A stretch of DNA of 64,000 nucleotides from an uncultured Chthonomonadaceae bacterium (GTDB lineage Bacteria > Armatimonadota > Chthonomonadetes > Chthonomonadales > Chthonomonadaceae), in contig CAWIEK010000049.1 of assembly GCA_963835065.1 (NCBI GenBank), forward strand, positions 288,001 to 352,000, in the 5' to 3' direction. Positions 7,670-53,306 of the stretch are shown here, one piece after another. The stretch's first letter is position 1. Each line of letters starts with the position of its first letter. A program made the position numbers and the translations under genes. Below the pieces are notes generated by a model. It searched no databases, had not been told where the DNA came from, and saw only the letters and a program-made list of their open reading frames with translations.

Positions 7670-9979
7670 GGCTTCCCTCCCTGTGGCGCAATGCTTGACG
7701 GCGCGACATTTTGCGGCGTAACATTCGGCGACATGCCTTGGGGCGCGGCGTTCGGCGCATCGCTCGTACTTTTCATTTGCATCACCACGCAGCCATGTTC
7801 GTTGAAAATCGGCGTCCACAAGCCCCGCTTGATGGCGTCGCCCATCAGTTGATGCCCCCGATCTCCCGCCGCGCCTGTGGTCAGGCCCTCCACATACCAC
7901 TTTTGCAGCGCATCAACTTCCACGCCGTTCGGCCCACCCGGAAAATCAGGGTCACGAGTTCGGCCCGTTGTTTTGCGCCGCCTGATTGAGATTTATCAAG
8001 GCGTATTCAATCCCGTGCCCGCGAAACCACACGGTCAGTTCCGCGCCGTTTTGCAGCGTTTCGTAAGGAATGTAGGACGAGTGCTGCTGATTAGCCCACA
8101 CATACAACCGATCCAGATAAAAGCCCCGCGTTTCATCCACAAGAGCGATACCGGCGCTTGGGGGAGTGTTCTGGTTAATCCATTGTTCGGCATCATAAGC
8201 GTCGAAGTGTCGGCGTAAATCCATGTCCCATGCCTGCGGCTGCGCCAGATTAGCGAACAGGGTCGGAACCGACACGCTGGAAGGCATTTGTCCCAATTGC
8301 GTCAACGCCCTGCGCTCATCCCCATTGGCGTTCATCGGCAGCGTACACACAGACAGCAGCACATAGCCAGCCTGCCCGAAAACAGCGACAATGCCCAATA
8401 CGCCCGGCACTTGGGCGAATGTCAGGCGTGGCAGGCGTTTCGCGCTACTACTGTCAGCATTACCGCTACTCTCCGTAAACACAAACCGACACGCGGCATA
8501 CGCGCCCACAATGGCAAACAAAGGCATTACCTGAATCAGATAACGCCCCACCTGCGACAATATAAACCACGCCAGAACCTGCCCCATGCCAAGCCACAGC
8601 AGACCGCGAACGGCAGGCGATATTCGACGGACAAACGCTAAGGGAAACACAAGCGCGGCGTACAATCCCCCAAACAACGCCGTAAAATTATATTCCCCCG
8701 GATTGCAGTACAGGACGCTCGATTTCACGTTCGGGCGCGTCAGCAAATGCCAGGGAACCTGTAGGATATTCAGCAGCTTGCTGCGAACATCCGGCGACAG
8801 AGGCTTAGTTCCGAACTTGTCCTGCTCCGATTGATAGGAAGCCGCGCGTTCCAGACTCCAATAACGGCTCTGCGGAAACGCTTTCGTCACAAACGGATAC
8901 ACGGGATTGCGCATCACAACGATGTTCTTCACGTACCAGGGCGACCCAATCGCCAGCGCAACACCGACAAACAACGCAGTCTTTCGGATTGGAACCCGCG
9001 TCAACAACAGCATGATCGTCATCAACCCGAACGGCACAAGCGCCAGATACTTCATCCCCAGCGCGAAGCCCATGAGCGCCCCGGAAAGGAGGAGAAGGGA
9101 ACAGGGAACAGGGAACAGGGAACAGGTATCTGCTTGTTTTGATAAAGGCGGTAATTGTACATCTTCTGTCTTCTGTCTTCTGTCTTCTGCGACCTCCCTG
9201 TTCCCTAACCCCGAAACAAGCGCAAAGGCGGCGAGCGTGGTGTACGTGGCGAGGCCGACATCTATGTACGCGACACTGCACTCCCACAGTACCATCGGGG
9301 TCGTGACGAACACGACGGACGCCAGCCAGCCGACAACAGGCCGCAATACCCGGCTGCAAAAGCCGATTATGCCCATCACAAGGAAGCCGGCTAACAGCAA
9401 ATGGAACAGATTGGAAAGCGCGTAGCCATTGTAAAGCAATCCTGCGGCGAAGAGCATTTCCAGGGTAAACGGAAAGTTGCTGTGATGCTCGGTAGGAAGG
9501 TTGGGAATACGATGCTGAAGCAGAAACAGCTTTGGATCGGCAAGATGATAGGAAAGCGCGTCCCATTCCAGCGGTCCCGGCGGACGAAAACAGGCGAGGA
9601 GCGCAATTAAGCCGAAAACAATCAGAAAAATTACGCAGGCGATAATCAGCCCCGTTTCCAAGCCCCACTTTGATGCCGATGCGACAGCAGCGTTACGCTT
9701 GCGCTGTCGCCAAGACTGAAAATCGCTGCCATAACCACGCCAACCACCCCACCCTGCCGCTGCCAGCGCCAGCCACCAACAAGTGACCGGCCAGAAAGAT
9801 AACAGTCCTGCCAGGCCGAGCGCGTACACGCCATAGGCGGCAATGCCCAGGCCAAGCGCCCCGCCATAAGCCAGGCGTTCCAAGGGCGCAAAGATGGGAA
9901 GATCAAGCCGATCCAGCAGCGCGCGTCCAACGGCAGCGGCAATGCAAGCAAATAGTATTATCAGCAACAGTGCAATCAT
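7666..9979 (-). CDS. GT-C-type (ArnT-like) polytopic membrane protein; apparent frameshift near 7957-7975
   Basis: WDALSYHLADPK, AYIDVG, GMKY, PWYVKN...NPVYPF. ORF 7952-9979 continues in another frame (RDPDFPGGPNGVEV...) to a TGA at 7666 that is coupled to the next gene. Confidence 0.75.
9096..9206. repeat. In-frame heptamer-repeat insertion: (AGGGAAC)4 ... (TCTTCTG)4 ... CCCTGTTCCCT
   Basis: Seen directly; translates as GNREVAEDRRQKTED...[10 protein letters not shown] within the membrane protein. Confidence 0.9.
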
Positions 9980-10016
9980 ATTGTAAGGTATGGAACCGTC
10001 GTCACGAAATGTCGGC

Positions 10017-11066
10017 TTATGTTTGGTCTATGATTTGGCGCAATTGCTGTATCTGCGCTTCCATTTCACTCTCTGAGGGCGATTTGGGCAGAGGCAGCAA
10101 TTCAGCGCTCAGTTGCGGCTTGGCATTGCCTGTGTCGGGCAAACCGGCAATAGAATTATTACGCGAAATAGCAATATACCCGACATGATGCCCGAAACAG
10201 CCGGTCTGTACGATAAGCGTATCCCCTACCCTCTCGCCATTTTCTAATCGCGTGTGCGAGTGTCCGCCAATTATCAAGTCAATGCCCGGAACCGCTTCCG
10301 CCAGTTTCCTGTCCTGCGCGTACCCGATATGGGTCAGCGCAATCATAACATCCGGCTGATACTCCGCCTGCAATTGCGGCACGAGACGCTTGGCAGTGAC
10401 AATGGGATTTTCAAACAGATATGCGGAAACATGGCGGGCGGACATACGCTCCGTTACCATCGGAACCGTCAGGCCGAAAACAACAACGCACAGCGTGGTT
10501 CCGTCTGTTGCCTGCAAGGTACGAACAATATAGGAACGCGCGGGAGGATCGGTTTGCTGTTTCTCCTGTGTTTGCCGCGCGTTTGCTGACGTTTGCCCTG
10601 TATCATCGCCGCTTCCAACACAGTCAAGATTCAAATTGTTACTATGTTCGGCTTGTCCAGATGGTCGCACATTCGCGCAAAGGATAGGAAACTGCGCCAG
10701 TCCTACTTTGCAGTGAAAACCGGTACGCGACACATGGAATTCGCGGTTGCCCACTGTCATGGCATCGTAGCAGATCTCATTCATGGTCTTGAGGATCGCT
10801 TCGCCCCAGGGCTTGAACGTGACATTGCCGGAAGCAACGGCATCCCCGGCATCCAGCAACAGCCCCTGTTTGCCGACAGCCTGCCGCAAGCGCCGCAAGC
10901 AATCCGCCTGCATGGAAGTCAGATGATTATGAAAATCGTTGGTATGTAGGAGGATGAACACAATAGTTCCCAGGCGACTGGCGTATGCGATTGGCAGAAG
11001 GGAGGACAAAGCCGCAACTATCAGTGTCCAGTATACCATACGCGCCAACATACAAATTCTGCGCAA
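10017..11066 (-). CDS. Metallophosphoesterase, 5'-nucleotidase-like N-terminal domain
   Basis: LHTNDFH, LDAGD, VGNRE, ALTHIG, IIGGHSH motifs. True start probably near 10961. Confidence 0.88.
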   Translation of the reverse strand: MRRICMLARMVYWTLIVAALSSLLPIAYASRLGTIVFILLHTNDFHNHLTSMQADCLRRLRQAVGKQGLLLDAGDAVASGNVTFKPWGEAILKTMNEICYDAMTVGNREFHVSRTGFHCKVGLAQFPILCANVRPSGQAEHSNNLNLDCVGSGDDTGQTSANARQTQEKQQTDPPARSYIVRTLQATDGTTLCVVVFGLTVPMVTERMSARHVSAYLFENPIVTAKRLVPQLQAEYQPDVMIALTHIGYAQDRKLAEAVPGIDLIIGGHSHTRLENGERVGDTLIVQTGCFGHHVGYIAISRNNSIAGLPDTGNAKPQLSAELLPLPKSPSESEMEAQIQQLRQIIDQT

Positions 11067-23321: not shown

Positions 23322-24011
23322 TTAGTGCTTGACAACCGTCAACTTGTTATCTATCTTGTAGGACCCACCGGGCGATGCGGCTTTGGCGATTTCCTCGGCA
23401 TGCTTCTTCATCTCGTTGGTCTGCACCGTTCCCTTGAGGATGATGGTTTGTCCGTCGCTGCCGGTATCCACGTTGATGGAGTTCAAACCGGGGTTGGAGT
23501 TGGGATACAGCATGTCATCCTTCAGCAACGCATTCTTCACGGTGGGCGTGACCGTCACCACTTTGCCCGCATGCGTAGCCACCTCGCCCGCCTTTCCGAC
23601 GGCTTTGGCTGTGGCATCGGTAGCGTCCTCCGCGCCTTTTTTGACGGCGGCGCCCGCATTCTCCACTGCCGCGCCCGCATTTGCTACGCCCTTTTCAACG
23701 GTAGCGCCTGCGTTCGCAACGCCTTTTTCAACGGTGGCTCCCGCTTCCGCAGCGCCTTTCTGCACAGCCGCGCCCGCTTCCGCAGCGCCTTTTTCGACAG
23801 TGGCGCCCGCGTTCGCTACGCCCTTCTCAACTGCCGCGCCCGCTGCCTCCGTTCCCTTGACTGTCTTTACGGCGGCAGTGTCCGCCGCGTTTTTCACAGC
23901 GGCGGTGTCGTTAGCAGCATCCGCTTTCATGCCGTCCGACGTATTGGAACAGCCGACAATGCCTGTCCCGAATAATACGGCAGCGCTTGCCAATAGGAAT
24001 AGTCGCTTCAT
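23322..24011 (-). CDS. Lipoprotein with 11-aa tandem repeats and a C-terminal BON domain
   Basis: Lipobox IVGC; AGA(A/T)V(E/Q)KG(VAN/AAE) repeats; INVDT...ILKGTV...A..IA...IDNKL. Confidence 0.85.
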   Translation of the reverse strand: MKRLFLLASAAVLFGTGIVGCSNTSDGMKADAANDTAAVKNAADTAAVKTVKGTEAAGAAVEKGVANAGATVEKGAAEAGAAVQKGAAEAGATVEKGVANAGATVEKGVANAGAAVENAGAAVKKGAEDATDATAKAVGKAGEVATHAGKVVTVTPTVKNALLKDDMLYPNSNPGLNSINVDTGSDGQTIILKGTVQTNEMKKHAEEIAKAASPGGSYKIDNKLTVVKH

Positions 24012-34058: not shown

Positions 34059-35507
34059 ATGGCGCACACTCCGCACGGCATACTGCCCCTCGAACCCGCA
34101 AACGGTTTTTGGGCGGCCTACAACCGAATTCCCCTCTTTGTCCGCATCCTCGTTGCCATGACGCTAGGCATTATCGCGGGCGAATTGATACCGCCCGCCA
34201 CCATGACGCAGTATGCTCCCTCCTTAAAACTGGTCAGCGACACGATCCTGCAACTGCTGAAACTGCTCGCCACGCCGCTCATCTTTATCGCCGTCGTCCA
34301 CGCCATTTATAAAGCGCAGGCCAGTGGCAAAACCGCAAGCCGTCTTGTGTTCCTGTTGATGCGCAATACAGTTGTCGCCATTTTCATCGGCCTGCTTGTC
34401 GCCAACGTTTTACAGCCGGGAAGGTGGGTACATGCCGCGCCGTCCGGCGACAAAATAGCGACGAAATCTTCCAATTTTCTGCTTGATTTGGTCGGTAAAA
34501 TCCCGGCCAATCTCGTAGACCCGCTTCAGCATAATGAGATTATCTCTATTCTCATCTTAGCGGTCGCGTTCGGCGTCGCCATGCGCCTTGTGCGCGATCA
34601 GCAAGCCCGCGACGGCAAATCCGGCATCAACACCATCGGCGATTTGCTGGATACCGCCTTCAGCATCGTCATGGTCATGTTGCACTGGATTTTCGCCATC
34701 GTGCCTCTTGCTGTCTTCACGGTTGTTACCCGGCAGGTGGGAACCAACGGCGTCAAGCCGCTCATCGGCCTACTGGGGTTTGTCATCGCGGTGGTACTGG
34801 CGCTTGCGTTGCAGGCCGGATGGTATCTCGCAAACGTCCGTTTCCAGTCATGGGTAACGCCCGGACGGTTCCTCCGCGGAGCCTCAGATGCCCTCGTGAT
34901 GGCGTTTTCAACCGCCAGTTCCGCCGCAACCCTACCCGTTACCTATGCGGCTATGAAAGATAAAATCGGGGTACGGGAGGAATCCGCCGGTTTGGGAGTG
35001 ATGGTTGGTGGCACATTCAATCACGACGGCACGGCGCTCTACGAGGCAATGGCCGCCCTGTTCGTCTGTCAGATGCTCGGACAGCATCTAAATTGGGGAG
35101 AACAAATCAAAGTAGTCATCATGTCCGTGTTCGCGTCGGTCGGCGCGGCGGGCATCCCGGAAGCGGGCTTGGTCACGATGCTGGCCGTTTTCTCCGCCGT
35201 CAACCTTCCCACCGAGTACATCGCCCTGTTGCTGCCTCTCGACTGGTTCCTCGACCGCTGCCGCACCGCCATCAACGTCATGGGCGATATGAGCGTCACC
35301 TGCATGATTGACGGCAAAATCGCCCCTCCGAGTGAGGCGACAGCCGGACTCATCTTGCAACACCGGAGATTCACGCCGAAATACTGTCACAGCATTGAAG
35401 CGCATCATCTACTCTTAGTCAATGCGTATGCCGCTGCTCCTCAGGGCTGCTTTGAAACTGAACGATCATACAACCCAATTTGCGCCTGCATGTCGTTGTA
35501 CAATTGA
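34059..35507 (+). CDS. Dicarboxylate/amino acid:cation symporter (DAACS, GltP/GltT-like)
   Basis: AAGGAG RBS; AFSTASSAATLP, NHDGT, GIPEAG, DWFLDRCRTAINVMGD. The C-terminal tail runs into the convergent gene, so the 3' end is uncertain. Confidence 0.92.
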   Translation: MAHTPHGILPLEPANGFWAAYNRIPLFVRILVAMTLGIIAGELIPPATMTQYAPSLKLVSDTILQLLKLLATPLIFIAVVHAIYKAQASGKTASRLVFLLMRNTVVAIFIGLLVANVLQPGRWVHAAPSGDKIATKSSNFLLDLVGKIPANLVDPLQHNEIISILILAVAFGVAMRLVRDQQARDGKSGINTIGDLLDTAFSIVMVMLHWIFAIVPLAVFTVVTRQVGTNGVKPLIGLLGFVIAVVLALALQAGWYLANVRFQSWVTPGRFLRGASDALVMAFSTASSAATLPVTYAAMKDKIGVREESAGLGVMVGGTFNHDGTALYEAMAALFVCQMLGQHLNWGEQIKVVIMSVFASVGAAGIPEAGLVTMLAVFSAVNLPTEYIALLLPLDWFLDRCRTAINVMGDMSVTCMIDGKIAPPSEATAGLILQHRRFTPKYCHSIEAHHLLLVNAYAAAPQGCFETERSYNPICACMSLYN

Positions 35508-36076
35508 TCAAAGGTAACACAAAACACTTTATTAGAGTCAATTAGCACTCTATCAACTCGCCAGCGCAGTCGCTCTGCTTCACCCGGTTCCAGCAGATTG
35601 TGTCGTCCAATCAGCATCAATCCAGAGAATGTTGCATGACGCCCGAACAAGCGTTCAAATTCATTCGTCTGGCGCACATCGCTCACCTTGTAAAACCAGT
35701 CTATGATTTGACTGAAACCATGCTCAAATCGTGGTGACCAATCTCGCGTTGCCTTTTTGCCTGAGCGATCAAAGACACTTCTGGCCGAAGCGTCTTCCAC
35801 TTCAACAAGGCAGTACGCCTTGTTACTCGAATCGCCGATTACCAGGTCACAGCTAAAGTCTCCAGACAAAGACAACTCCGAAGCAACGCAATCCACTTCT
35901 ATGATGCCCGGCACATATAAGTTCGTCAGCGCCGTCAAATGTTTGCAAGCCTTGAAAAGTGGCAGCAGATGTTTGCGTTCCTCCGGTTCTGCTACCGTAT
36001 CCAGAAGCGTCTTCAATGCCTTGACTTCTTGCTGACAAGCCGTAAGATCGAAGGAGTAATGGTCTAAACTTTTCAT
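35441..36076 (-). CDS. Shedu-type anti-phage nuclease (DUF4263, PD-(D/E)XK)
   Basis: EE.....F, EL.L.GDFSCDLVIGD, LVEVEDA, FEHGFSQIIDW, LIGR, TFDQL pattern. Confidence 0.78.
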   Translation of the reverse strand: MKSLDHYSFDLTACQQEVKALKTLLDTVAEPEERKHLLPLFKACKHLTALTNLYVPGIIEVDCVASELSLSGDFSCDLVIGDSSNKAYCLVEVEDASARSVFDRSGKKATRDWSPRFEHGFSQIIDWFYKVSDVRQTNEFERLFGRHATFSGLMLIGRHNLLEPGEAERLRWRVDRVLIDSNKVFCVTFDQLYNDMQAQIGLYDRSVSKQP

Positions 36077-36534: not shown

Positions 36535-39500
36535 TCAGCGTTCCGGGTCATAGTTCAGGTTGGGCGCGAGCCAGCGTTCTACCGTTGTCACTTCCATGCT
36601 CTTGCGCTTCGCGTAATCTTCCACTTGATCTTTTTCGATCTTGCCGACCGGGAAATACCGCGACGCGGGATGCTGAATGTAAAAGCCGGAGACGCTGCTT
36701 GCCGGGTGCATGGCGAAACTCTCGGTCAGGCAGATACCCGTCTTGTCTTCTACCGTCATCAGGTCGAAGAGCGTCCGTTTTTCCGTATGATCCGGGCAGG
36801 CGGGATAACCGGGCGCGGGACGAACGCCCCGATACCGCTCCTTGATTATGTCTTCCGTACTCAGGTTCTCGTGCCGCCCATATCCCCACTCGTCCCGAAC
36901 GATCTTATGCAGACGCTCCGCAAACGCTTCAGCCAATCTGTCCGCCAGCGCGTCCGCCATGATCGCGTTGTAATCGTCATGCTCCGCCTTGAACTTCGCC
37001 TTCAACTCGTCCACGCCGATTCCCGCCGTCACCGCAAACCCGCCAAAATGATCCGCCAGTCCCGTTTCCTTCGGCGCAATGTAATCAGCCAGGCACAAAT
37101 TTAGGGTGTTGGGTGTTGGGTGTTGGGTGTTGGGAATTGCGCTCTCCTCTTCTCCTTTTCTCCTTTTCTCCTTTTCTTCCTCTGTTCCCTGTTCCCTGTT
37201 CCCTGTTCCCTCTTTATCCATCTGCTGCCGCAGGAAGTGGAAGCGCGTCAGGACTTCGGAACGGGTTTCGTCCGTGTACAATTCCACGTCGTCGCCCACG
37301 CTGTTGGCGGGGAACAGGCCGTACACCGCCCGCGCCGTCAGCAGTTTGCCGGCTACGATCTGCTGAAGCAGCGCTCGCGCTTCCTCGTACAGTTTACGCG
37401 CCGTTTCGCCAACAACCGCGTCGTTCAGAATCGCCGGGAAGCGCCCGTGCAGTTCCCATGTATGGAAAAACGGCGTCCAGTCAATGTAGGGAACCAGTTC
37501 TTCCAGCGGGTAGTTATTCAGGACGCGAACGCCCGTAAATTCCGGCTGCGCCACATCTGCGGGCTTCCAGTCAATCGGCGTTCGGCGCTTCCGCGCTTCC
37601 GCAATCGGCAGCATCTTCTTTTCTTCGCGCCGATTCGCGTACTGCTCCCGCAAAACCTGCTGTTCCAGTTTGTTGCGCTCGATGTAATCCGGCTTCTGTT
37701 CCTCGCTTAACAGGGCGCTGACAACGCCCACCGCCCGCGACGCATCCAGCACATGTACCACTTCATGATTGTAGGAGGGCGCGATTTTGATGGCCGTATG
37801 CGCCCGGCTTGTTGTTGCGCCCCCAATCAGGAGGGGCACTTCAAACCCCCGCCGCTTCATCTCGCTCGCCACATGGATCATTTCATCCAGCGAGGGCGTA
37901 ATCAGGCCGCTCAAGCCGATAATGTCTACGTTCTCGTCCTGCGCCGTTTGCAGAATCTTTTCCGTCGAAACCATCACGCCCAGATCAATCACTTCGTAGT
38001 TGTTGCAGCCCAGCACGACGCCCACGATGTTCTTGCCGATGTCATGCACATCGCCCTTCACCGTCGCCATCAGAACCTTGCCCTGCGCCTTCACCTCGCC
38101 GCCGGACGCCCGCACCGCCGCCTTTTCCGCTTCCATAAAGGGCAGCAGCACGGCTACCGCTTTCTTCATCACCCGCGCCGATTTTACCACTTGCGGCAAA
38201 AACATCTTGCCTGCCCCGAATAAATCGCCCACAATGTTCATGCCGTCCATCAACGGCCCTTCAATCACGCTCAATGGACGGTCGTACTTCTGTCGCGCTT
38301 CCTCTACATCCGCTTCGATGTAATCGGTCACGCCCTTCACAAGCGCATGGGACAGCCGCGCCTCAACCGTTCCCAGCCGCCACTCTTCCTGCTCGGTCTT
38401 GTCCTTCTTTTTCTCGCCCTTCACCGTTTCCGCAAACGCAAGCAGGCGTTCGGTAGACTCGGCGCGGCGATTGAGAAGCACGTCCTCAACCAGTTCAAGC
38501 AAATCTTTCGGTATCTCATCGTAAACCGCCAACTGCCCCGCGTTGACAATACCCATATCCATGCCGGCCTGCACCGCATGGTACAGAAACGCGGCATGCA
38601 TGGCTTCGCGCACGGCATTGTTGCCCCGGAACGAAAACGAAATGTTGCTGACGCCGCCCGACACCTTTGCACCCGGCAAGTTCTGCTTGATCCAGCGCGT
38701 CGCTTCGATGAAGTCAACCGCGTAGTTGTTATGCTCTTCCAATCCCGTCGCAACCGTCAGGATGTTGGGATCGAAGATAATATCTTCTGCGGGAAAGCCA
38801 ATCTCTTCCGTAAGGATTTTGTACAGCCGTTCGCAAACCTCGATTTTGCGGGCGTAACTGTCCGCCTGCCCCTTCTCATCAAACGCCATCACAACCGCCG
38901 CCGCACCGTACTGCCGCACTAGCCGAGCCTGCTGCTTGAACGTTTCCAGATTCTCCTTTAGCGCCAGCGAGTTGACAATGCCCTTGCCCTGAATGCACTT
39001 CAGCCCCGCTTCAATCACGGCAAACTTGGAACTGTCAATCATAATCGGGACGCGCGAAATAGCGTCATCCGGCCCGACAAGATTGAGGAACGTGGTCATG
39101 GCCTGTTCGCCGTCCAGCAATCCCTCGTCCATGTTCACATCAATGATCTGCGCCCCATTTTCGACTTGCTGCCGCGCAACCGCCAGCGCTTCCTCATAAT
39201 TGCCCGCCAGAATCAGTTTGGCGAACTTGGGCGACCCGGTTACGTTCGTGCGCTCCCCAATGTTGACAAAGTTGGCATCCGGGCGCAGCGTTAAGGCTTC
39301 CAAACCGCTCAATCGCGTAAACGCGGGAACTTGAGGCGGAACGCGCGGCGCGTAATCTTTCACGATCTCAGCGACCCCGCGTATATAATCCGGCGTCGTG
39401 CCACAGCAGCCGCCCACGATATTCAGCCAGCCGTTCGCCGCCCAATCCCGAATAAACGGGAACATCTGCTCCGTCGTCAGGCTGAATCCCGATTCGGAAA

Positions 39501-40335
39501 GCGCGTCCGGCAGTCCGGCATTAGGATAGGCACTCAGATAAAACGGCGACAGGCGCGACAATTCTTCAATGTTGGCCCGCATCAAATCCGGCCCCACCGC
39601 GCAGTTCAGGCCGACGGACAGCAGGGGCGCGTGTGAAACGGAATTCAGCGCCGCTTCCAGCGTTTGCCCCGACAACGTGCGCCCGCCGCCCTGCGGAAAC
39701 AGCGAAATGCTGACCATTACGGGAACTTCCCGCGCTCCCTCCGCAAACAGTTTTTGTATGGCAAACAACGCCGCTTTCAAGTTCAGCGTATCAAACGTCG
39801 TTTCCGGCAGCAGCAAGTCCACCCCGCCTGCAATCAGCGCCTTCGCCTGCTCATAATAACTCGTCATCACCTGATCGAACGTAACAGCGCGGAATCCGGG
39901 GTCATTCGTGTTCGGTGATATGGAGAGGGTTCTGTTGAGTGGCCCCATGCTTCCGGCGACAAAGCGCGGACGTGAAGGATCGCGCCGCATCGCCGCTTCC
40001 ACGCATTGTCGGGCAATTTGCGCGGCTGCAGCATTCATTTCCGCCACATAATCGCTCAATTCATGGTCGGCCTGAGAAATAGCCGTTGCCGTGAACGTGT
40101 TCGTTTCGATAATATCCGCGCCCGCATCCAGATAATCATTGTGAATGCCGACGATAATATCCGGGTTCGACAGGTTCAGCACATCCGGGTTGTTTTTCAG
40201 GTCAATAGGATGGTCGGCAAACCGCTTGCCCCGGTAATCCGCTTCTTCCAGCCGCTTGCGAAACAGCAGTGCCCCCATCGAGCCATCCAGCACCAAGATG
40301 CGTTTTTGCAGCAATTCTCTTATATCCGTCACCAT
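36535..40335 (-). CDS. metH: Cobalamin-dependent methionine synthase
   Basis: LDGSMG, GGCCGT, IGERTNV, B12 motif [20 protein letters not shown]; about 35-aa repeat-derived insert. Confidence 0.98.
37104..37210. repeat. Composite in-frame repeat insertion in metH: (GGGTGTT)4, (CTCCTTTT)~4, (CTGTTCC)4
   Basis: Seen directly; encodes [35 protein letters not shown]. Confidence 0.92.
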
Positions 40336-40500: not shown

Positions 40501-41282
40501 CTAAACGCCCAACTCCGCCCAAAGCAGTTCATCCAGCAACGCAGCCGGCATTTCCCTGTCCGGCAGTTCCGTCACCTGCTCACCCACGCGCAGAAGTTCG
40601 CCGTCAATAAAGCCGTCCAGCAACGTATCATGCGCTTCCGTTCCCAACTCCACCGCCTGCTTTTTGCGTTCCATGAGTTCATCCAGCCGCGTTCGCACAT
40701 CGGAACGGAAGCGCAATGCTTGCCAGCGCGTCGTGTATGGATGTTGGCGGCGGTGTCTGATGCTGCTCCATCCAGCGTATGCAGCACAAAGGCCGCAGCA
40801 CGTACAAATATTTTTTCAGCGAAACTTCCGCCTTGTTCTCAATCGAAAGCCGGTAGTTCGACTTCGCCATGCTGATGTAATGGTACGTCATGCGGCGCGG
40901 CGAAAAATGTTCCTGCGCCAGCATACGCAGCCGCGAAGCAAAGTCGCCATTCTCTCGATAGACTATGGGCGAGTGCAGCCATTCCAGCAGGGACGGGTTC
41001 GACTTGCGAAACTGCGTCAGCGCCTTCACCATATCCCACCCGTTGATGTCCAAATCCCCTTCAATGGGCAATTCGATCACATCCCGGCGTTCCTGCAAGC
41101 GGACATAATCCCGAACGCCCCGCTTGATAAACAAAGCGAACATCATAATCACTGTCCGGTGACGCAAAGCCCCACGCCCGACTGCCCAACTCCACCGCAA
41201 ACAACAGCCGCGCATCCTGTTCGCGCTCCAACCGGTCAAGTTCACCCTGTATTCTGCTGCCAACACTGTCCACTTCGCTCAT
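40501..41282 (-). pseudogene. Nucleotidyltransferase (YcgL/RlaP-like), two frameshifts
   Basis: GSRAWGFASPDSDYDVRFVY, then KSNPSLLEWLHSPIVY and KKYLYVLRP in a second frame, then the C-terminus in ORF 40501-40716 after another shift. May be assembly error. Confidence 0.75.
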
Positions 41283-41627
41283 TCTCACACCTTCAACGCC
41301 GACATTGTCCGCTAACAACTTACCAATTGCTTCTCCCCTCACTTCGGCAATGCCCGTCCCTTTCATTATACCAGATGCCATTTCTGGCTCTGTAATCAGG
41401 CAAGACAAGCCGTAAATCAGAAAAGTTGCACTCCCATTCACGCACCGAAATGCGGTGTAGTCCGCGCAGGCGGACTTCGTTAGCACAGCCGCGCAATTTA
41501 TTGCTACTGGCACGGGCTTTTGCGCGAACTCTGCTTACATGGCTCCATGCTTGCACGGATGCTTACATATTTACGGCGCAACTTCGCGCACATAAAAGTA
41601 CATCAGGGAACCCCCGCAGGCGCGTTT

Positions 41628-50078: not shown

Positions 50079-53306
<3,228 letters not shown>

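Follow-up and report, generated by a model that had tools for sequence, protein, structure and literature searches.

The locus raises the question of how three different arrays of 7- and 8-nt repeats came to lie side by side, in frame, inside a gene for B12-dependent methionine synthase (MetH), and how such a chain relates to the many similar arrays of the same genome, including those in the 23S rRNA gene of the same window, i.e. of the whole 64,000-nucleotide stretch of DNA from an uncultured Chthonomonadaceae bacterium that was analysed here.

The repeat block in metH

The metH gene (36535-40335, minus strand) is a single open frame of 1266 aa that contains all five Pfam domains of its class, i.e. 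the homocysteine, pterin, cap, B12 and activation domains, with the profile match to the activation domain (PF02965) being broken into two stretches by the arrays. In coding direction, the three-arm block (37104-37211, minus strand; 108 nt or 36 codons) starts with a G-rich arm of four AGGGAAC units plus AG (37182-37211; 11 residues, aa 1042-1052) and continues with a G-rich 8-nt arm of four AGAAAAGG units plus AGA, one unit being a variant (37143-37177; 13 residues). After an 8-nt centre, at which polarity switches from G-rich to C-rich (37135-37142), it ends with a C-rich arm of four CCCAACA units plus CCC (37104-37134; 11 residues), which is complementary to neither G-rich arm. On the window, TRF reports GGGTGTT x4.4 at 37104-37134, TCTCCTTT x4.4 at 37143-37177 and TTCCCTG x4.9 at 37177-37211, which together with the open 1266-aa frame confirms that, as a first-pass annotation had claimed, three different arrays are concatenated in frame within MetH.

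The same annotation put the addition at about 35 aa. This agrees with the block of 36 codons, but the net gain over homologues is 32-33 aa, since the LRQQ-xLAD loop has 42 residues here, whereas the E. coli protein has 9 (TEKTGFANY in 1MSK) and 84 of the 116 parsed homologues, out of 120 fetched, have 10. At the nucleotide level, a short form of this loop with 42 nt is found at 16 of 28 parsed metH loci of related genomes. In E. coli MetH, the lysine after LRQQxx may contact flavodoxin, a point on which nothing here depends. All three arms recur in the genome as exact copies, the AGGGAAC 30-mer 152 times (overlapping hits included), the octamer 35-mer with its variant unit five times and the C-rich 31-mer 17 times. 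The AGGGAAC family is shared with a 23S rRNA hairpin insert and with the flank of a four-helix-bundle gene on contig C25, and the octamer family matches the arms around another such gene on C33. That each unit type would resemble repeats elsewhere in the window was right for two of the three: the 8-nt family has 59 further arrays in the genome, none of them among the 14 arrays listed in the window.

In an AlphaFold model, the activation domain has a mean pLDDT of 82.6 and the insert appears as a low-confidence loop between strands. The insert is thus predicted to form a surface loop. It is likely to be tolerated and translated, and its effect on MetH itself is probably neutral. At the RNA level, it folds no better than shuffled versions of itself (z -0.54) and has neither the complementary termini nor the long stem of an rRNA intervening sequence (IVS), so an RNA hairpin or self-excision was rejected for want of a fold signal. 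Cutting by RNase III does not re-join RNA, and the preserved frame, stop avoidance and hydrophilic reading of such inserts make sense only if they are translated. That the insert is removed from RNA or protein in the manner of an intron, IVS or intein, with MetH being made without it, is thus very improbable, even though the 23S rRNA hairpins built from the same arms look excisable and RNase III is described as cutting out the Coxiella IVS (PMC4990558).

It seems extremely improbable that an assembler mis-joined repeat nodes into metH. Contigs from four public runs do not span the whole insert, but those of run X1 cover both gene-to-array junctions without gaps; this run represents a relative, not the strain itself (12 of 454 and 50 of 857 letters differ), and contigs of other relatives join the metH flanks with 30, 42 and 63 bases less. 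Moreover, a MetH from another assembly (P0001, 89% identical) retains traces of each of the three arms in unchanged order, a homologous arm is present in the sister genome G002, and mis-joins would not preserve frame and hydrophilicity.

The surroundings of metH include, just downstream, an ORF with a match to the C-terminal domain of SduA, the nuclease of Shedu defence (35441-36073, minus strand). At 40679-41513 (minus strand), a match to an RlaP-family nucleotidyltransferase is split over two overlapping ORFs (profile positions 3-48 and 50-182), which suggests a frameshift. Elsewhere in the genome a MetE-like gene is present.

Length, order and reading of arms across the genome

Arrays with a unit of 7 or 8 nt number about 2,600 in the genome; they typically comprise four units and the start of a fifth and belong to more than 30 unit families. 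Arrays with at least three exact copies number 1,330 for heptamers and 123 for octamers versus 31, 32 and 6 for periods of 5, 6 and 9, and 2,593 fuzzy 7/8-nt arrays were detected, where order-3 Markov simulations of 2 Mb yielded 0 and 1. Three copies are found in 621 exact heptamer arrays, four in 678 and five in 28, and a length of at least 35 nt is reached by only 31 of the 1,330. In the large families, the module consists of four units plus 2-5 bases in a fixed phase and lacks conserved flanks, in line with the earlier suggestion of cassettes of roughly four units. The commonest arm length is 30-33 nt for heptamers and 35 nt for octamers. With either period the leading bases thus occur five times, which suggests that it is units that are counted, not bases. 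A separate observation in the window is a 33-nt tandem repeat with 5.3 copies (23659-23844), which is unrelated to the heptamer arms.

Could such arms have grown in place by slippage from chance seeds, with selection, e.g. for G-quadruplexes or RNA binding, holding their length near four units and no copying between loci? One-unit length differences between near-identical paralogues, three-unit steps between the MetH loop and that of P0001, and C arms that end in register with ancestral T-[ILV]-N codons would all fit, and Rehm et al. tie four units to quadruplexes (PMC4692102). Yet copy number is sharply capped, as the 678 four-copy and 28 five-copy arrays show, instead of decaying geometrically, the phase is fixed within each family, heptamer arrays outnumber hexamer arrays by 1,330 to 32, and junctions between canonical families are abrupt. 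Four tracts of at least three G are present in AGGGAAC and GGGTGTT arms, but absent from the octamer arm and from the large GATAGTT, AGGCATT and CAGTAGT families, which follow the same length rule. Finally, the 1,054 arms with internal variants represent 860 strings, the commonest of which occur 15, 12 and 9 times (the MetH octamer variant five times), and identical internal variants at many loci favour copying between loci over independent growth. Slippage as the sole origin of the arms is therefore unlikely. The claim of insertion rather than slippage is supported for the origin of the chain at an insertion hotspot, but not in full, as slippage seems to act as well, by trimming.

The arms follow a strict order. 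For 419 neighbours at a distance of 40-80 nt, the G-rich arm precedes the C-rich one in 408 cases, of which 337 are complementary or nearly so, and follows it in three; the order holds on either strand and is broken in only 9 of 791 multi-array clusters. G arms on the sense strand follow stop codons in 639 cases versus 56, and C arms precede starts in 353 versus 36. Abutting arms of the same side share a family in only 2 of 88 GG pairs. MetH itself carries a G-G-C chain, and 21 of 29 such GGC chains combine three different families. The 274 complementary pairs have a spacer mode of 57-58 nt. Their spacers were also considered as captured foreign or guide sequences, an idea that was rejected after a search of this genome, in which 51 of 274 have another match, mostly to duplicates or spacers of the same family.

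Within reading frames, the composition differs. Arrays lie in frame with coding-like flanks in 208 of 1,639 clusters, distributed over 184 ORFs, coding status being assigned by a codon-usage score and compared with relatives at 23 site comparisons. Complementary G-C pairs account for 13 of 120 pairs in these coding clusters versus 434 of 572 elsewhere, which have the terminal inverted repeats of MITEs, whereas the three non-complementary arms of MetH do not; at least three families are combined in 44 of the 208 coding clusters versus 54 of the other 1,431. Coding arms are nearly always oriented such that their reading is hydrophilic and free of stops: for the AGGGAAC family, 104 readings as NREQGTG compare with 15 as PCSLFPV, for the GGGTGTT family, 24 as NTQHPTP compare with none as GCWVLGV, and two families with stops in both directions are coding in 1 of 227 and 0 of 143 cases. 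This stop avoidance and the choice of hydrophilic readings suggest that the in-frame inserts are translated. A search for the peptides that the first-pass annotation had picked out of the MetH loop finds GNREQG in 82, PNTQHP in 19, CSLFP in 13 and SKIENR in 10 of 183 ORFs. A second in-frame chain in the window combines two families (9096-9189, minus strand) within an open frame without Pfam match (7955-10027, minus strand); at this site G002 carries three other families. About 180 ORFs, including MetH, with repeat-derived peptide modules compare with the 44 insertions of Rickettsia palindromic elements first reported for Rickettsia conorii (PMC10969869), and make this genome a strong case of repeat DNA as a source of new protein sequence.

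Turnover of arm families at fixed sites

Comparison with 778 kb of G002 and 400 kb of a second sister genome, G001, with array densities of 130 and 15 per Mb, respectively, versus 333 on the contig analysed here, indicates that sites stay while families change. At 17 matched coding sites, G002 carries arms at 15, and at 13 sites a family absent from the corresponding site of the source genome; of 61 matched non-coding sites, 27 have a different family, four the same and 30 are empty. In G001, arms are found at 8 of 31 sites, each of a different family, and loop lengths differ by multiples of three at 6 of 6 sites. The site matches in both genomes include paralogues. No single replacement was seen between near-identical strains, and with G002 only about 78% identical to the source genome, what looks like overwriting may also result from separate insertions into a preferred site.

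The metH loop is one of these sites. Arm-type peptides of several families occupy it in 5 of the 116 parsed homologues, as the alignment with relatives shows (other arm peptides are found in P0002, P0004, P0005 and the distant P0096 with 67% identity), and in G002 it contains a homologous purine arm next to a different C-rich arm, so the loop is indeed an insertion hotspot, as had been proposed. The G002 gene is frameshifted within the loop, which is probably an assembly error, as many G002 frameshifts lie outside arrays; those on its contig C14 affect otherwise conserved genes and are consistent with an unpolished assembly. In a protein-level comparison, the P0001 loop is shorter by 8 plus 7 aa, corresponding to three octamers plus three heptamers, and three units is the only slippage step that keeps the frame. 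P0026, a homologue that its source assigns to an armatimonad, shares its loop with two genomes of the same family, which makes an armatimonad origin of the DNA probable.

Besides metH, one arm is shared and the other swapped relative to G002 at C11:142570. Within the genome, the paralogues C8:72956 and C23:34744 differ in both arms while retaining a related spacer. A dispersed repeat of about 300 nt with an optional arm slot (e.g. at C60:88055) has 113 motif-matched copies, in about half of which the slot is empty and in most others filled by a GATAGTT arm; in some copies, flanks that have not changed enclose another family or a TAGGGTTT-GATAGTT chimera. As to which arm arrived first, outer and inner arms do not clearly differ in perfection (68 versus 91 of 223), and a tree of the 113 copies, in which two GAGGGTT copies were mislabelled as chimeras, is poorly resolved. 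The series provides ready-made material for studying arm replacement. A CCTTC-like target-site duplication was seen at one repeat slot only, and arm flanks are not conserved.

Two mechanisms might produce such mixed chains. Whole MITE-like elements, consisting of a G arm, a spacer of about 57 nt and a complementary C arm, or gene-bearing cassettes could insert into the centres of older ones, with deletions then removing spacers and frame-harmful arms. The complementary pairs with their regular spacers resemble such unit elements, G-then-C order would follow directly, and polarity and spacers would be explained equally well. Furthermore, comparison of the paralogues C63:2346 and C32:18149 shows a new pair enclosed by what is left of older arms, in-frame complementary pairs number 13 (one of them at C37:121035), a 23S rRNA site that is filled here is empty in G002, and a broken metH intermediate may be survivable with the MetE-like gene present. 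Against this stands the rarity of the symmetry that nesting predicts, with GGCC clusters being of an 'abca' type in 1 of 13 and 'abba' in none, and with the GGC chains mostly of three different families. Several gene-breaking intermediates would be needed per coding chain at about 200 sites, single arms swap between species, and C8:72956 and C23:34744 keep their related spacer while both arms change. We therefore regard nested insertion as conceivable but rather improbable.

The reading that we consider probable, if by no means certain, is that loops such as that of MetH are persistent slots which are overwritten arm by arm with short-patch copies of arms from dispersed donors. It is preferred since single-arm swaps, chimeric junctions, polarity and the mixed chains in genes all follow from it without gene-breaking intermediates, and it modifies the proposal of successive insertions, since the comparisons suggest that arms are overwritten singly and not only added. 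The MetH insert would then be an in-frame chain of arms like those found around 23S_rRNA_IVP genes and in rRNA intervening sequences. A single arm would be copied by short patch from elsewhere in the genome into a slot that already holds an arm, with the new arm landing on or beside the old one via a few shared bases. Template switching is known to correct imperfect hairpins, and between genes such correction may make the opposite arm complementary again. Inside genes, this step would be selected against, since the mirror arm encodes stops or hydrophobic runs, and mixed chains would pile up, with slippage trimming arms in three-unit steps that keep the frame.

Four-helix-bundle genes, rRNA intervening sequences and related systems

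All three PF05635 genes of the genome and both in G002 have an arm on either side, the upstream one G-rich and the downstream one C-rich, with AGAAAAGG arms on C33 and AGGGAAC arms on C25. The GGGTGTT arm is found at none of the three, but upstream of one such gene in genome G092 (L165). Arrays occur within 200 nt of PF05635-type loci in 60 of 78 cases for named loci of many phyla, in 23 of 30 for loci of this phylum and in 64 of 71 for metagenome loci, i.e. overall at 147 of 179 four-helix-bundle loci (11 of 190 having been dropped as too short) versus 10 of 205 control windows. In G001, no PF05635 gene was found, though arms occur there.

The 23S rRNA gene of the window (50082-53304, minus strand; 3,223 nt) carries arms as well, in two hairpin inserts with the long stem of an IVS and a third arm-bearing insert near 52880-53010. 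The insert at 51070-51220 (minus strand) has complementary AGGGAAC arms (-113.9 kcal/mol) and an empty counterpart in G002, and that at 51800-51950 (minus strand) has AGTAGTC arms (-82.9 kcal/mol), with a hairpin of another unit family at the G002 site. A second copy of the rRNA operon, on C51, shares 99.8% identity as well as the 23S inserts.

The period of the arms appears to follow the PF05635 protein subfamily. For relatives of the octamer-flanked gene, 8-mers make up 42 of the 54 arrays upstream and 44 of the 54 downstream, as predicted beforehand, and matches to a profile of three genes have 7-mers in 48 of 50 upstream and 33 of 35 downstream arrays, both samples being centred on the query genes. 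On a tree of 145 of the 179 proteins, the period needs 14 changes versus 53 for shuffled labels, which shows co-inheritance, as kin share labels, and not binding; a period that follows the subfamily is expected from mere co-inheritance.

The four-helix-bundle protein matches a Xanthomonas structure with five chains (2GSC). Given the shape of the module and this solved oligomer, one may guess that arm length is set by a pentameric protein that recognises five repeat cores, although arm lengths of 16-135 nt near four-helix-bundle genes elsewhere mean that five cores are not a universal rule. Extending this guess, we tentatively envisage a selfish system in which pentameric Avd-like rings, with subfamilies tuned to 7- or 8-base spacing, would count five cores and guide short-patch writing of arms onto existing arms, so that hundreds of loop slots swap peptides combinatorially between sister species; this seems doubtful as a whole. 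The tie between arms and four-helix-bundle genes in this genome leads to sharp predictions: each arm should have five cores, spacing should match the protein subfamily, G-then-C polarity should be strict and families should turn over at fixed sites. Against a simple link, only three four-helix-bundle genes are present versus more than 30 unit families, G001 has a few arms without such a gene having been found, and GxxExxY genes are bracketed by other arms. Where a G and a C arm are separated by 100-1600 nt, inspection by eye showed four-helix-bundle genes on C8 and C33, the remaining intervals having ordinary genes or none; one candidate cargo proved to be a rod-binding protein.

Several known systems share features with these arms. 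In ORF-bearing 23S IVSs (S23p or 23S_rRNA_IVP, PF05635), a four-helix-bundle gene likewise lies between inverted arms, and published work describes a homopentameric protein of this kind in Xanthomonas and, in Coxiella burnetii, tandem heptamers (GACAGAT) in the 5' arm with strain-variable copy number (Warrier et al. 2016, PMC4990558). Here, in contrast, arms occupy about 2,600 places, mostly without a gene and in more than 30 unit families, and those of MetH are non-complementary, hairpin-free and appear to be translated. The heptamers of Xanthomonas and Nostoc (Rehm et al. 2015, PMC4692102) and the TAACTGA repeats of Beggiatoaceae (MacGregor 2015, PMC4679880) are likewise preferentially of four units, form inverted pairs, are depleted in coding regions and place the G-rich strand after stops and the C-rich strand before starts, a pattern that concerns one family in Xanthomonas. 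As described in these two reports, they comprise one unit family per genome with proposed quadruplex or translational roles and with intragenic copies mainly at protein ends, whereas here many families, many without G-tracts, are chained in mid-domain and replace each other at fixed sites. Rickettsia palindromic elements are also dispersed families translated in frame within unrelated metabolic proteins, but are described as palindromes of about 150 bp with one conserved peptide (PMC10969869), neither of which applies to the MetH chain. The arms here are periodic modules of 30-37 nt, variable in order, mostly non-palindromic in genes and tied to a gene family. REPIN/BIME mosaics likewise comprise inverted pairs with a spacer, occupy sites repeatedly and include a gene that has the repeats on either side; these repeats are short palindromes, and the flanked RAYT gene encodes an HUH transposase. 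The gene flanked here encodes a non-catalytic four-helix bundle, the units are tandem 7- or 8-mers, and the genome's four Y1 matches have no arms. In-frame heptamers may also occur in cyanobacterial nifJ, which we mention without relying on it. Judged from sequence, the outcome resembles that of Rickettsia palindromic elements and the origin that of IVS arms, and the MetH chain appears to be neither a palindrome nor an excisable hairpin. What appears to be new at this locus are polar multi-family chains and the link between period and subfamily: a literature search conducted largely outside subscription journals retrieved no paper on polar multi-family in-frame arm chains or on an arm period following the PF05635 family. 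Four-unit heptamer repeats and the 23S_rRNA_IVP family have long been described but left unexplained, and this genome ties both together quantitatively.

Other candidate partners were considered. Arms bracket none of the four Y1 transposase matches and neither of the two reverse transcriptase matches, so an autonomous partner of either kind was rejected. As typed by context, one RVT_1 match lies beside Cas1/Cas2/Cas6-like ORFs and a repeat-spacer array (L059, 3430-4614 and 5900-8000) and the other in an unrelated locus. The four-helix-bundle proteins match bAvd only below the cut-off and their genes are not near the RVT_1 matches; neither these loci nor the bAvd comparison indicate a diversity-generating retroelement. 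Three GxxExxY (PF13366) genes (L054, L055 and L056, at C19:8329, C39:76631 and C3:174084) are bracketed by degenerate arms of about three units with an 8-9-nt period, a second arm system to which the CACAGAGA family may belong.
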